From Acidimicrobiales bacterium (GTDB taxonomy: Bacteria > Actinomycetota > Acidimicrobiia > Acidimicrobiales > Aldehydirespiratoraceae), in contig JAJCXY010000108.1 in the NCBI GenBank assembly GCA_029263215.1, positions 2,135 to 66,134 of the forward strand: a stretch of 64,000 nucleotides of DNA, read 5' to 3'. The translations under genes were made by a program, and so were the position numbers. The notes under the pieces were generated by a model that had not been told where the DNA came from, made no database searches, and saw only the letters and a list, made by a program, of their open reading frames with translations. Positions 2,618 to 49,357 of this stretch are shown piece after piece. Position 1 is the stretch's first letter; every line of letters begins with the position of its first letter.

Positions 2618-3610
2618 TCAGGTTGGCGCCGCGCCGGCTCCGGCCCGCCACGGATCAGGCAGTTCGACGATCGCCTGCTCGTCCCGTTCGAGGAGCGAAA
2701 GCGCGGCGAGAACGACGCTGCGCTGGCGTTCGCTGTCGCCGGGGGCGCCGAGCGGACGGCCCATCGGATGCTTGGTGATCGCGGCCCTCGCGACACCCAT
2801 GAGTTCGGGGATGTGGCCGAAGCTGCGTACGTAGACCCCGACGGTGGGGATCCCGATCGACTCGATTGCTCGCTGGACGTGTCCGACCGACACGTGGCAG
2901 ACGGGTCAAACGGGCACCAGCAGGACTGCGTCGACTCCATCATCGCGGAGTTGCTCGGCCCACTCGGGCGCGTTCTTCTTACGCAGCCTCACCTGGGAGG
3001 TGGCGCCGACGAACGAGTAGGCGGTTGGCGCGAGTCCACCGATGACGCCGTCATTTGCCAGCGCCGTCATGTGTTCGAGAGGTAAGGCGACCTGGTGATC
3101 GGCCGCCACCGAAGCGATCGGGTAGCCGCCGTGTCGCACTCTCAGCTGAGAGGGCGGCGTATCTACCGGCACAGCGGATATCGAAGGTGCCGCGCTGAGG
3201 AACTCGCCGATTCGCGCCTCCGCCTCGGCCTGGGTCATGTCTTCGACGTCGAACGGTCGTGGGTCGTCGCCCTCGACAAAATGTCCGCTCGACGTGAGCA
3301 GGGCAACGGTGCACTCCGAGAGCGGCTTGCCGAGGCTGGCGAGCGGCGTGTCGTCGTGGCGGTGGGGGAAGTCGGCGGGGTCTCCGAGATGACCCACATA
3401 CGACTCGAGTTGCCAGCGGTAGGCGGCATCGATCACCCGATCGGCGTTGCCGTCATCGGTGGTCGCGGCAATGGCGGCCAGTAGTTCCTCGAGAAACGCC
3501 CCGAACTCGTCGTCGCTGAGGCCCTTGATGAACTTGAAGTTGAGGTTGCTTCGTGAGCCGTAGGCGAACGACTGGCGAAGCTGCTCGATGGTTTCGGGTT
3601 GCTTGTTCAC
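2618..3610 (-). CDS. glycine/sarcosine/betaine reductase selenoprotein B (GrdB) family protein, predicted selenoprotein (Sec = TGA at complement 2906..2908)
   Basis: The C-terminal part of ORF 2906..4237 (...GVDAVLLVPV) and ORF 2618..2893 are in the same frame and separated only by TGA-CCC-GTC-TGC-CAC. The read-through product is ...LLVPV-U-PVCHVSVGHVQRAIESIGIPTVGVYVRS...HPMGRPLGAPGDSERQRSVVLAALSLLE, which is GrdB-family-like. The likely start is GTG at 3610 (VNKQPETIEQL), 23 nt after the upstream stop. Confidence 0.75.
2877..2895 (-). promoter_or_regulatory. candidate bacterial SECIS hairpin downstream of UGA 2908..2906
   Basis: Minus-strand RNA is UGA CCCGUCUGCC ACGUGUC GGUCG GACACGU. This gives a perfect 7-bp stem starting 10 nt after the UGA, with an apical GGUC beginning 17 nt after the UGA. 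Confidence 0.55.
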
Positions 3611-3633
3611 GCCGACAGGGTAGGGCCTCGGCC

Positions 3634-4404
3634 TCAGCGACCGAAGTCGAAGGTGCTGATCTCGACCATGGCTTCGGCCAACTTGGCCACGGCATTGTCG
3701 AACAATTGTTTGCCGAGTTCCGCGCTGGCGCCGGTGGGGTCTCCGATATATCCGTCGGGATCGAAGTCGTTGGACAACCACCCGAATGAAACCGACCCGC
3801 CGAACTTGACGTGGGTGTTTTCGGCCAGCCGTTCGGGAACCTTGCGCTCGGCGCCGCTGAGGTCGACTTCGTCGGGGCGGAGGTACATGAAGACCGAGGT
3901 TTCGTTCAGGCCTCCGTGGATGCCCATACCCAGTTCTTCCTCGGTGGATGTGCCGCCGTAGGCCGGGGGGAGCGAGGGATGCATCAGGAAGGTCTTGAGC
4001 CCATGGGCCAGCCGCAACTCGCGCAGTGCGGTCCCGAGGTGGGTGGTGTTTCCCCCGTGGCCATTGAGCAGAACCAGACGTTGCGCCGCGGTGGTGGCGA
4101 TCGAACGGCCGATGTCGCGAAGAACGGCGAGCATGGTTTCCGGCGACAGGTAGAGGGTGCCGGGTGACCAGGCGTGCTCGTTGGACTTCGAGATCGACAG
4201 TGTGGGCAGTTGCCACACGTCGAGTTCCTCGCCACACGCGGCCACCACGGCCGTTGCGACCTCCTCGGCAATCACCGTATCGACCGACATCGGCAGGTGG
4301 GGGCCATGCTGTTCGATCGCGCCGATGGGCAAGAGCAGGATGCTCGATGGCTTGATCGCCTCAGCGATCTCGGGTCCGGTCAGGTCCTCGTAACGTCGAC
4401 TCAT
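3634..4404 (-). CDS. creatininase (creatinine amidohydrolase) family protein
   Basis: 256-aa ORF. LLLPIGAIEQHGPHLPMSVDT...LVLLNGHGGN is characteristic of the creatininase family. It lies immediately upstream of the GrdB-like gene. Confidence 0.85.
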   Translation of the reverse strand: MSRRYEDLTGPEIAEAIKPSSILLLPIGAIEQHGPHLPMSVDTVIAEEVATAVVAACGEELDVWQLPTLSISKSNEHAWSPGTLYLSPETMLAVLRDIGRSIATTAAQRLVLLNGHGGNTTHLGTALRELRLAHGLKTFLMHPSLPPAYGGTSTEEELGMGIHGGLNETSVFMYLRPDEVDLSGAERKVPERLAENTHVKFGGSVSFGWLSNDFDPDGYIGDPTGASAELGKQLFDNAVAKLAEAMVEISTFDFGR

Positions 4405-9752: not shown

Positions 9753-9865
9753 TAGCGTCGTTGGCCTGGCACGGTGAATGGTCGTCTCGTGTACGAGGCC
9801 ACCATCCTCTACGAGCTCGAGTTGTCGCCCTCGCGATTCTCGTAATTCCGCTCACTGGAGAAGCG

Positions 9866-11344
9866 ATGGCAGTGTCAGACGAGACCCCGAGTGGTCCGGG
9901 CATATGGTCGGGCCCGTACCTGGCTCTGACCTTCGCTCATCTCGCGGTGGTGGCCCTCGTCGCGTTCGGTGGCTTGGCGGTGGTGGCGGCCCTCTCGAGC
10001 ATTGCAGAAGACCTGGGCAGGGTGGGCTTGCTGCCGTGGGTGATCACCGGCCAACTGGCCGCCGGAGCGGTGGCGCTGATCTTCGCCGGTCCGGTGATCG
10101 ACGCAGTAGGAGTTCGACGGACGTTTCGCGTCACCGGGGTATGGCTGTTTGTCTCGACCGCGGCTGCGGCAGTTGCACCATCCATGCCGATCCTGATTCT
10201 TGCCCGGGTGATCCAAGGCTTCGGTGGCGGCCTCGTCTTCGGCGTGGCGTTCACCGCTATCGGAGTGGGTTACCCGAGCGAGCTTCGTCCTCGGGCGTTC
10301 GCGGCTCAGTCCGTGGTGTTCGGAGCGGGAGCGTTCGGTGGTCCCGCCGTGGTGGGCGCGATGTTGGCACTGGGTGGTTGGAGACTGGTCTTCATCGCCG
10401 AACTGCCCCTGATCGCGCTGGCGCTGGCTGTGGGCTGGACGGCGCTACCCACCACACGCGAACGACCTGCACGAATCGAGATCGACTGGAGAGGAGCAGG
10501 CCTACTCACCGCGCTGATCGGTTGCTCGCTTGTGGCGGTGGCCCAGATCGGGGTGCGGTGGTGGGCCGTGGGCCTGGCCGTACTCGGATCCGTTCTGCTG
10601 ACCGGCGCCTACTGGGGTCACAGCGGACGTACGCCCGTGCCCGTGATCGCTCGGGAGCACATCACCCGATTCCCTCTGATGTGGATCCACATCACTTCGG
10701 GCCTGGTGATGTTCATCGCGCTGGGGCTCGAGAATTACGTGCCCCTCTACGTACAGACATCGCGCGGCCGGTCGGTGGAATTCGCGGCCTTCGCCCTCGT
10801 CTTCCTGAGCACGGGTTGGACGGTGGGCTCCCTGCTGTACAGCCGTGCCCTCGACAAGTGGCGCGACTGCGATGTGGTCCTTCTCGGATGTGCGCTCTTC
10901 ATCCCGTCGCTCAGCCTGGCCGGTGTTTCGATCGCCCTCACCTTGCCGCTGGTGGTGTTGTTCGTCGCCTTGGGACTGATCGGCCTGGCGATTGGGTTGG
11001 TGACGACAGCGGGCATCAACCTGCTGCAGGGCAGTAGCGGGATGGAAGAGATGGGGCGCGTCACTTCATCTCACCAGTTCATCCGTCAGGTGTCGCTCAC
11101 CTACGGTGTCGCCCTGGCGAGCGCGATCCTGTTCTTCGTCGTCGACCGTCAGGTGGGCGACGTCGAGGCTCTACGCGAGGTGATCGCCGGCGAGGATGTC
11201 GCCCTCGGCCCCGAAGCGAAGAACGCGATCCGAGATGGCCTGGCCTGGGCTCACCTGATCATGGGCAGCCTGGCTGTCGGATGCCTCATGGTCGGGATAT
11301 CTCTCGTGCGTCGTACCGATCCGGTCGATTCCAGCCCACGCTGA
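9866..11344 (+). CDS. MFS transporter
   Basis: ORF 9761..11344. ATG at 9866 is preceded by GGAG with a 5-nt spacer. There are about 14 hydrophobic spans and an MFS-like loop, GPVIDAVGVRRTF. Confidence 0.8.
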   Translation: MAVSDETPSGPGIWSGPYLALTFAHLAVVALVAFGGLAVVAALSSIAEDLGRVGLLPWVITGQLAAGAVALIFAGPVIDAVGVRRTFRVTGVWLFVSTAAAAVAPSMPILILARVIQGFGGGLVFGVAFTAIGVGYPSELRPRAFAAQSVVFGAGAFGGPAVVGAMLALGGWRLVFIAELPLIALALAVGWTALPTTRERPARIEIDWRGAGLLTALIGCSLVAVAQIGVRWWAVGLAVLGSVLLTGAYWGHSGRTPVPVIAREHITRFPLMWIHITSGLVMFIALGLENYVPLYVQTSRGRSVEFAAFALVFLSTGWTVGSLLYSRALDKWRDCDVVLLGCALFIPSLSLAGVSIALTLPLVVLFVALGLIGLAIGLVTTAGINLLQGSSGMEEMGRVTSSHQFIRQVSLTYGVALASAILFFVVDRQVGDVEALREVIAGEDVALGPEAKNAIRDGLAWAHLIMGSLAVGCLMVGISLVRRTDPVDSSPR

Positions 11345-11834
11345 CGGAGTCGTTGAGGTCGGGATTCTCGTAGTCTCGTAGGTCGATGCCAGAGTGGAGT
11401 ACGGCGCGGAGGTTGGTCATGAAATAGATCCAACAGCCACGGCAGTTCAGATGCTGCCAGACGCGGTCGGGATCGATTGGCGCACAGTTTGTCTGGTGAA
11501 GGTGGACCTCAGTGCCGGCCTGAACGTCTCGAAAGCCGATGTCGACGGTCATCGGGCCAAACGTGAACGTCAATCGTTCGTCCGGCTCCACCGCCATGTA
11601 GCGACCTGAGTGCTGAAAGTCGTGGAGGTAGCTCCAGCGATAATCGTCTCCGGCCTGAACGATCTCGTCTGGGTCGCGAACTTCCCCGTCGGGGCTGGTG
11701 TGCTCAGCCCGAGCTATGAAAAATGACTCGAGTCCTCGACTCGTTGCCCACGATCTGAAGACTTCCGAGCGCGATCGCTGGTAGTACATCGAAAGCTCGA
11801 ACTCGGTCCAGTCGTAGTTGTCGGTGCCGCCCAC
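11286..11834 (-). CDS. SRPBCC (Aha1/START-like) family protein
   Basis: 182-aa ORF. EFELSMYYQRSRSEVFRSWATSRGLESFF...LTFTFGPMTVDIGF is a fold-typical pattern. It overlaps the MFS 3' end by 59 nt in convergent orientation. Confidence 0.6.
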   Translation of the reverse strand: MGGTDNYDWTEFELSMYYQRSRSEVFRSWATSRGLESFFIARAEHTSPDGEVRDPDEIVQAGDDYRWSYLHDFQHSGRYMAVEPDERLTFTFGPMTVDIGFRDVQAGTEVHLHQTNCAPIDPDRVWQHLNCRGCWIYFMTNLRAVLHSGIDLRDYENPDLNDSVSVGWNRPDRYDAREISRP

Positions 11835-47783: not shown

Positions 47784-48344
47784 TCAGAGGAGATGCTGCA
47801 CCCGATCGAGCAGGTGGCGGCCGATGATCGCGAACCAGAGCAGGTAGGGGACAAGCACCACCAGCAGCGCGTGGACCGGACTAAGACGAAGGGTATGACT
47901 GGTGGCCGCGCTGAGCACGGCCGGAAACCAGAACGCAAACACGAACACCGCAGAGACGAATCCCGGCCCGAGAATCTCGAGCAGACCGGCGGCCACCAGA
48001 ATCACCAGGCCGAGGGCGAGCACGGGCGTGTGGGCCAACCCGACGGCCGCAACGGCCATCTGTAGAGATGGCACCGAGACGCCGCCGTCTCGACCGTCCC
48101 CAATGGTGCGGGCCGCACCTTCCACCAACCATATGGCGCCGGCCAGACCGAGCCAGCCCCATACGCCCACCAGCATCAGGCGGAGAAACGACCTCGGCGT
48201 GTCGACGATGAGGCCCCCGAAACGGTTGAGGGCCATCAGGAACGATGTCGTCGTCACCAGGGTGAGCGCCGACCAGATCGAGCCGGGCCCGACGCGTGCC
48301 CACTTGACCGCGTCGAGGCCGAGAATGCGAGGCACCGCGTTCAC
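47784..48344 (-). CDS. Yip1-like multi-pass membrane protein (hypothetical)
   Basis: The GTG start overlaps the stop of the DUF3179 gene (GTGA at 48344..48341). Five hydrophobic spans are present. The upstream part of ORF 47784..48563 is out of context. Confidence 0.6.
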   Translation of the reverse strand: MNAVPRILGLDAVKWARVGPGSIWSALTLVTTTSFLMALNRFGGLIVDTPRSFLRLMLVGVWGWLGLAGAIWLVEGAARTIGDGRDGGVSVPSLQMAVAAVGLAHTPVLALGLVILVAAGLLEILGPGFVSAVFVFAFWFPAVLSAATSHTLRLSPVHALLVVLVPYLLWFAIIGRHLLDRVQHLL

Positions 48345-49357
48345 GGTTCCCACACGGTGCCATCGGGCCAGAAGGTGTCGTAGTCGCCGGGAAACGAAGT
48401 CAGAGCGGGCAGCAGGTCGAGAATCTGGCCCTCCAACTGTCCCTCGAGGGCGAAGCCCCTCGCCGGGTCGAAGGTGGTGCCGGTCACCGTTTCTCTCAGC
48501 ACATCTCCGTCGATCTCGAGATCCACGATGATGTCGCCGAGGCGTCGGGAGAACACCGCCCAACTGTCGGGTTCAGTGGGATCGCTCACCACCGCGATCT
48601 CCAGGCCCGCCACCACGTCGTTGACCACACCCACCTGTCGTAGATCGGGTATGGGATAGGCCCGCACCTCATCGGTGAAGTCGACCACGATCACGAAATC
48701 GCCGAGATCGAAGCCGGAACTGCCGGCCGGGGCGGCCAGGGCGAGGGTGTCGGGGTGCTTGTCACGCCAGGCGCCCCACGTGGTGAACTCAGACGGGAGC
48801 AACTCGACCTGTTGGCCCTTGCGGGGCCCAGCGATCGCCTCACCGAGAGGCTGGCTCCAGATGCTGCCGGAGCTGTGATCCCACCACGTCATAGCGTTGC
48901 CCCACAGGGCACCGTGCACGCCGAATATCAGGGTTTCCCCGTTCACCTCTCGACGATGGACCATCGCCGTTGCGCACAACGGTCACCAAGAAACGAGTAT
49001 CGGGATCTTGTCGAGCTCGTCGACCACCAGCTCTCGGCCGTTGAGAAAACTCACCGGGTAGGCCTTCGATTCGCCACCGAGGGTGACCCCGATGACATGG
49101 GTGTCGTCGGTCCAAGGCGTGACTTCAGCCCTAGCGAAGATCGGGTCGTACACGGGCTTGATCGCGTCGCGGGGCAGGAGTTGGCGAAAGCCGTCGGGCA
49201 ACTTCTCTCCGGCCGCTACCGGGTTGTAGGCGTCGTCGGGGCCCACCCGAACGCCGGCGCTGGTTCGCACCGAGTCTGTGTCTTCGCTGAACGCCCACGC
49301 CGAAAGAGCGACAAGGATCAGGACGGCCGAAATCAGCCAGCGACGAGTGGGTTCCAC
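48341..49357 (-). CDS. DUF3179 domain protein, predicted exported selenoprotein (Sec = TGA at complement 48983..48985)
   Basis: ORFs 48983..49357 and 48341..48979 are in one frame: ...DKIPILVSW-TGA-PLCATAMVHRREVNGETLIFGVHGALWGN...SIWSQPLGEAIAGP...TWGAWRDKHPDTLAL. As I recall them, DUF3179 proteins carry CPLC at exactly this position. The N-terminus MEPTRRWLISAVLILVALSAWAF is a signal/anchor sequence. Confidence 0.75.
48953..48982 (-). promoter_or_regulatory. candidate bacterial SECIS structure downstream of UGA 48985..48983
   Basis: RNA is UGA CCGUUG-UGCG-CAACGG CGAUG-GUC-CAUCG. This gives two consecutive hairpins. The second has an apical GGUC beginning 20 nt after the UGA. Confidence 0.5.

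Follow-up and report, generated by a model that had tools for sequence, protein, structure and literature searches.

A DUF3179 gene of an Acidimicrobiales bacterium with a probable selenocysteine codon at the first cysteine of the CPLC motif

The stretch of 64,000 nucleotides analysed here (hereafter the window) comes from an Acidimicrobiales bacterium of the Aldehydirespiratoraceae lineage (GenBank assembly GCA_029263215.1, contig JAJCXY010000108.1, positions 2,135 to 66,134), and carries on its minus strand a gene of the DUF3179 family (PF11376). Positions 49357..48341 form a single frame of 338 codons, from a GTG start at 49357 to a terminal TGA at 48343..48341, whose sole internal interruption is another TGA at codon 125 (48985..48983; context ...IPILVSW-TGA-PLCATAMVHRRE..., reading IPILVSW-TGA-PLCATAMV). 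Public gene callers break the gene into products of 124 aa and 207 aa. The initial annotation, made from the letters and a list of open reading frames (ORFs), had joined the ORF fragments 48983..49357 and 48341..48979, placed the TGA at the first Cys of a CPLC motif and suggested that it encodes selenocysteine (Sec, U); it had also proposed a tblastn search of related genomes for TGA-containing genes alongside Cys-containing orthologues, and the prediction of a selenocysteine insertion sequence (SECIS). The two fragments do share one frame and only the TGA separates them. The Pfam search with the read-through product (Cys placed at the TGA) confidently identified DUF3179 (173 bits against a cut-off of 27, E=1.2e-50), and the protein of the window holds all core columns of the family, [WYF]-C-P-L-C...R...F-G...D-x-x-T-x-S-x-W-x-Q...G, with U replacing the first C (U-P-L-C, 48985..48974), where conservation of the core was measured on 113 diverse representatives and 39 close homologues. 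On comparative sequence evidence we consider it highly probable (about 0.88) that 49357..48341 is one functional DUF3179 gene, in which UGA-125 is recoded to selenocysteine.

The 113 diverse representatives were drawn from an exhaustive search that yielded 7,959 representatives at E<=0.001. Alignment to PF11376 puts the TGA, as had been proposed, at the first Cys of CPLC; 111 of the 113 (98%) have this Cys. The second Cys is found in 105 (about 93%), the remainder having Ala or Ser, and in some Sec forms this position is Thr (the UxxC/T motif of PMC9312934 and PMC13188914). Full-length proteins account for 38 of the 120 best database homologues, and all of these but one (37) carry Cys at the TGA column (...LVTW-C-PLCGTA...); the expected coexistence of Sec and Cys orthologues was thus observed, 81 TGA forms standing against these 37 close homologues. 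The remaining 82 are fragments of 195–211 aa that start just after the TGA, and 78 of them begin with M-V/I-H-R-R, as would be produced by a gene caller that restarts after a TGA. If this TGA were a true stop, the locus would produce separate polypeptides of 124 aa and about 207 aa, which is what the gene callers predict; termination would then fall, however, on the Cys that the family conserves most strongly, at a point where the full-length Cys forms are continuous, and judging from the structural model described below the split would cut the C-x-x-C turn and its β-hairpin in the middle of a well-folded domain.

A scan with one genome per species (tblastn) retrieved 80 related loci, with 53–91% protein identity over residues 1–338, nearly all of them from Acidimicrobiia, Acidimicrobiales or Ilumatobacter metagenome-assembled genomes. 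A TGA copy at codon 125 is present in 80/80 loci, the downstream frame is conserved, and the downstream half keeps the invariant D/T/S/W/Q core. The agreement over the 80 loci is judged to be far beyond chance. A lone in-frame stop in one assembly would, by itself, be compatible with a pseudogene or with a sequencing or assembly error, but the occurrence of the same TGA in 80 independent species-level assemblies at such levels of divergence effectively refutes this explanation, and the identical sequence is present in independent Logan and NCBI contigs. Neither a nonsense mutation nor a sequencing error can explain the pattern, and we regard the probability of this alternative as negligible. 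Within the set, L031 has two TGA paralogues of DUF3179, the TGA copy of L070 exhibits the motif PRC, L072 contains tandem DUF3179 genes, one with a TGC codon (10355-10357) and one with a TGA codon (11507-11509), and in L093 one Cys form and one Sec form reside on a 6.7-kb contig. Five Cys-form loci were obtained from the metagenome scan and were supplemented by exact-protein look-ups. The closest species-level relative, L001 (CAXMSE010000025.1; 91% identical, seven genes syntenic), bears the label 'uncultured Gammaproteobacteria bacterium', although nearly all other relatives belong to Acidimicrobiia; the contig is probably mis-binned.

The search for a SECIS element identified a candidate hairpin at 48951..48969 (minus strand), with the stem CGGCGAUG/CAUCGUCG and the loop G-U-C, supported by pairing, by RNAalifold and by synonymous constraint. 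In the window the stem comprises 8 bp including one G-U pair; it begins 14 nucleotides past the UGA and the loop lies 21 nucleotides past it, which falls within the loop-to-UGA range of 16–37 nucleotides used by bSECISearch. The pairing is intact in 99% of cells (36 sequences), and the helix is the RNAalifold consensus. Among 79 distinct TGA forms, 74 preserve 8/8 pairs and four preserve 7/8. The codons of the helix are virtually frozen in the 81 Sec-form genes: Thr+5 is ACG in 81/81, Ala+6 is GCG in 80/80 and His+9 is CAT in 81/81, while His outside the hairpin in the same genes prefers CAC; Arg+10 is encoded by CGC (75) or CGU (5), both of which pair in the helix. It is the third loop base and the base directly outside the stem that vary. 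The normalised synonymous codon entropy in these 81 genes is 0.17 in the helix, compared with 0.72 at 91 conserved columns elsewhere.

The Cys forms provide the control. Independent Cys-form genes (L082, L085, L086, L090, L091, L093, L095) encode the same T-A-M/L-V-H-x-R peptide via ACC/ACA, GCA/GCC and CAC, and can form merely 4–5 of the 8 pairs. Of the TGC genes, only that of L072 has kept the helix intact; it is nearly identical to a TGA gene, that of L077, and has the look of a very recent Sec-to-Cys conversion. In L088, a distant Sec form, the helix at this offset from the TGA is a different one (CCGGUC/GACCGG). The candidate hairpin is conserved and specific to the TGA forms. It resembles the SECIS of the E. 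coli fdhF type in being located directly 3' of the UGA within the coding sequence and in having an apical loop opened by G and U (the apical loop of fdhF is GGUC, and that of the window likewise has G first); it differs in the sequence of the stem, in that no bulged U is evident, and in the lack of an Rfam match. By analogy with E. coli, the hairpin would act as a bacterial SECIS and draw SelB, loaded with Sec-tRNA(Sec), to the ribosome while this pauses at the UGA. The same element could be read differently, because an invariant ATG is found within it, 7 codons past the TGA, and with a true stop at codon 125 an ATG-bearing hairpin might serve the coupling of termination with reinitiation. Against such coupling, the hairpin accompanies TGA and is lost in the TGC forms, which is the classic signature of Sec insertion.

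Whether the organism is able to decode Sec was addressed with other genes of the window and of the related loci. TGA is the stop in 28 of the 38 confident long ORFs of the window, including that of the DUF3179 gene itself; as it is the usual stop, the code is not reassigned and the recoding must be local. A second TGA-interrupted gene, of the GrdB family, was identified at about 3610..2618 on the minus strand (TGA 2908..2906, context DAVLLVPV-U-PVCH). Its read-through product matches PF07355 (glycine/sarcosine/betaine reductase selenoprotein B; E=2e-13, the match ending three residues before U), a 7-bp hairpin with the loop GGUCG (2877-2895) begins 10 nucleotides past the UGA, and public callers break this gene as well, into 234-aa and 91-aa products. 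In the related loci, read-through and Pfam searches (E from 1e-14 to 1e-23) revealed TGA forms of AhpC/TSA peroxiredoxin-like genes, all on the minus strand (L036, TGA 9821..9819; L047, ORF 1666-2238; L022, ORF 2980-3762), with the motifs W-U-PYC, G-U-MIC and H-U-LPC; they show a broader predicted selenoproteome in the related Acidimicrobiia lineages. Furthermore, in Actinomarina (Actinomarinales), a member of the same class, selA, selB, selC and selD have been reported in all 84 complete genomes (bioRxiv 10.64898/2026.04.03.716425). The presence of the GrdB-family TGA gene on the same contig, together with TGA as the usual stop, suggests that the organism of the window probably decodes Sec.

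Several results weigh against Sec recoding. Neither selA nor selD was recovered by tblastn with E. coli SelA and SelD queries from the window, from flanking sequence past its left edge or from 1.3 Mb of related loci, and ARAGORN identified no tRNA-Sec in the same material. The covariation test (36 sequences) revealed no compensatory changes in the helix, because the helix hardly varies; as covariation is uninformative on a near-invariant helix, the synonymous-site entropy and the comparison of Sec forms with Cys forms were used instead. The folding energies of single sequences are no better than those of shuffled controls (z between -0.3 and -1.0), hence the SECIS call rests on the comparative data. 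The CCGUUG variant present in the window permits a competing 9-bp helix, GACCGUUGU/GCGAUGGUC (48959-48984, minus strand), which takes in the GA of the UGA; most relatives have CCGCUG and cannot form this alternative. Finally, the hairpin had no match in Rfam, whether the gathering threshold or a permissive one was applied; since Rfam covers bacterial SECIS elements poorly, this result carries no information.

That the Sec machinery was not directly found speaks both for a true stop and for a selenium-free decoding of the UGA as Cys or Trp, through a near-cognate or suppressor tRNA. In the case of a true stop, the balance is decided by the position of the TGA in the family, by the loss of the hairpin in the TGC forms and by the same pattern in other known selenoprotein families on the contig and in the related loci, and we consider two separate polypeptides very unlikely. 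The insertion of a standard amino acid appears highly unlikely as well: genuine stops in the window are most often TGA, simple read-through needs no dedicated hairpin under strong synonymous constraint, DUF3179 is a recognised Sec family, and the relative from the same class possesses the full Sec machinery.

The status of DUF3179 as a recognised Sec family corrects the initial annotation, which knew of no description of DUF3179 as a selenoprotein family. DUF3179 (pfam11376) is listed among prokaryotic selenoprotein families, with the motif UxxC/T, in two reviews (Biomolecules 2022, PMC9312934; Applied and Environmental Microbiology 2026, PMC13188914), both of which cite Zhang & Gladyshev 2007 (PMC1976440), a work on the Olavius symbiont metagenome; the source in that work is the Olavius algarvensis delta-1 symbiont. 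Judging from the order of the review tables, DUF3179 is probably the family termed 'OS_HP1' by Zhang & Gladyshev, and in an ocean survey of 2008 OS_HP1, recorded as UxxC, was represented by 1 Sec sequence and 69 Cys homologues. At NCBI the relatives from Ilumatobacteraceae and Acidimicrobiia bear the product name 'DUF3179 domain-containing (seleno)protein'. In view of these listings and names the premise of novelty was wrong: of the proposed 'candidate new selenoprotein family member', the Sec gene and the new member stand, whereas the family, listed since 2007, is not new. The gene of the window adds a well-supported new member, at present mis-annotated, to a known selenoprotein family. It shares with the known DUF3179 selenoproteins the Pfam family, Sec in the first position of UxxC, the existence of Cys homologues and a stem-loop after the UGA; it differs from them in that it belongs to an Acidimicrobiia lineage with the Sec form in each of the 80 species-level loci retrieved, as against the single Sec sequence of the ocean survey, in that the SECIS is near-invariant, and in that its closest subfamily is accompanied by a conserved Cys-free membrane partner. 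In the family at large the DUF3179 domain is also found as tandem repeats, in the giant members P0128 (1587 aa, 6 separate DUF3179 stretches) and P0137 (1004 aa, 4 stretches).

The N-terminus of the product (MEPTRRWLISAVLILVALSAWAF; 49289..49357, minus strand) is predicted to be a signal peptide or to anchor the protein in the membrane, and A-W-A is a possible cleavage site. The hydropathy reaches a peak of 2.3 across residues 7–23, and a hydrophobic N-terminal segment opens all homologues, i.e. it is general in the family, in agreement with the signal or anchor recognised in the initial annotation. A Tat signal, suggested by T-R-R-W-L-I, was considered and rejected, since the homologues do not keep the RR pair. 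Given such an N-terminus, the two-domain, β-rich body of the protein should lie outside the cytoplasmic membrane. The initial annotation called such a location uncommon for a bacterial selenoprotein; that it would be remarkable is not supported, as exported or periplasmic bacterial selenoproteins exist, for instance the Sec forms of DsbA/DsbG-like proteins (PMC2398784).

Sequence and profile searches of the PDB revealed no solved structure that matches DUF3179, and NCBIfam contains no model for the family. An AlphaFold model was made of the Cys form P0001, which is 65% identical to the protein of the window (predicted local distance difference test, pLDDT, 88.7; predicted template modelling score, pTM, 0.84). 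The model is mostly β, with the N-terminal 40 residues disordered, and C-P-L-C is located in the turn of a β-hairpin that joins strands 125–132 and 137–142 (P0001 numbering). The best PDB matches identified by Foldseek were Rieske-type ferredoxin and NirD-like domains (~100 residues, E ~6e-3, probability ~1.0, target template modelling score 0.52–0.59), which, like DUF3179, have conserved residues in two β-hairpin loops. DUF3179 lacks, however, their CxH...CxxH ligand motifs and any similarity to them at the sequence level: Rieske Pfam families gave no match even at E<=10 in 38 members, and neither did the PDB profile search. Two His residues are invariant beside the two Cys in the close homologues; among the 113 diverse members one of these positions is F/Y/H and the other H/R/D. 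A Cys2His2 or Rieske-cluster site as a feature of the family was rejected on these grounds. The residues R, D, T, S, W and Q of the D-x-x-T-x-S-x-W-x-Q region are conserved in the wider family.

In the predicted structure Sec would be the residue that opens a U-x-x-C turn linking two β-strands. A near-invariant Cys/Sec whose partner can be dispensed with is typically found where a catalytic redox residue works together with a resolving Cys, and favours a redox centre over a metal site. We tentatively suggest that the protein is an exported selenol/thiol redox protein, in which Sec would be the attacking residue and Cys128 its resolving partner, and in some lineages a nearby pair of CcdA and a thioredoxin-like protein may keep it reduced. 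TlpA/ResA/DsbA-like oxidoreductases, several of which have Sec forms, resemble DUF3179 in the W-[C/U]-x-x-C motif, in being exported, in having the first Cys/Sec more conserved than the second, and in the CcdA and thioredoxin-like pair that is occasionally encoded near DUF3179; their motif is nevertheless placed at the start of a helix, while that of DUF3179 is in a β-hairpin turn of a mostly-β model. A redox role is further opposed by the predicted fold, which is not that of thioredoxin (DUF3179 proteins match no thioredoxin-family Pfam entry), by weak local matches to the HMBD heavy-metal-binding motif, which together with the weak likeness to Rieske domains leave metal binding possible, and by the minority character of the association with CcdA and the thioredoxin-like protein, which is absent from the window.

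Perhaps, then, the U-x-x-C turn of the selenoprotein binds a metal (Cu, Hg, Zn or Fe) on a Rieske-like β domain, as an extracytoplasmic chaperone or sensor? Apart from the structural neighbours and the HMBD matches, this would agree with the resemblance of the modelled CPLC turn to a metal knuckle and with MerR, HMA and ArsR-type genes near some family members. These metal-related neighbours are not conserved, though, the His residues needed for Cys2His2 are not conserved family-wide, no Rieske match exists at the sequence level, and the second Cys may be Thr, Ala or Ser, which removes a ligand; we regard the metal site as possible, if rather unlikely.

Directly downstream of the DUF3179 gene lies a gene for a 186-aa protein with 4–5 predicted transmembrane helices and no Cys (47784..48344, minus strand), whose GTG start overlaps the DUF3179 stop (GTGA). 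It occupies the same place in about 40 of the closest loci, is absent from the distant Sec forms and from the Cys forms, and is the only conserved neighbour. No Pfam or NCBIfam match was found for this protein, and its conserved residues are few (W, RFG, GW, G..H.P, W.P, HL). The upstream TauD dioxygenase, the 217-aa protein, the sugar ABC transporter and the downstream pair of ArsR and AHSA1 are common to the two nearest relatives only, on account of which a functional link to them was rejected. In 11 loci a gene pair encoding CcdA/DsbD-TM and a thioredoxin-like protein (WCPSC) is found 2–7 kb from DUF3179 and within 10 kb (L091, 4445-9948; L090, 9428-10896; L031, L038, L044-L046, L051, L052, L054 and L058), and the L091 cluster further includes MerR, a second DUF3179 gene and MsrA. 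This pair hints at an extracytoplasmic thiol-redox context.

It is conceivable, if speculative and on balance improbable, that Sec-DUF3179 and its Cys-free partner with 4–5 transmembrane helices constitute an uncharacterised extracytoplasmic selenoenzyme module on a Rieske-like fold in marine and sediment Acidimicrobiia, with Sec fixed in at least 80 species. Such a module would be a new scaffold on which aerobic bacteria carry out selenium catalysis outside the cell, and the SECIS constraint would in that case dictate the peptide T-A-M-V-H-R-R. The DUF3179 result reveals no new selenoprotein family; what makes it modestly interesting is the lineage-wide fixation of Sec, the frozen SECIS, the Rieske-like, non-thioredoxin scaffold and the membrane partner. 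For annotation, 82 of the 120 top homologues are truncated, and recognising the Sec codon repairs the gene calls for the whole clade. A family first seen as a rare selenoprotein appears to be fixed in its Sec form across many species of Acidimicrobiia, where it offers a clean example of an mRNA structure that constrains both codon choice and peptide sequence, and the high-confidence model together with the conserved partner gene may serve as starting points for determining the function of DUF3179.

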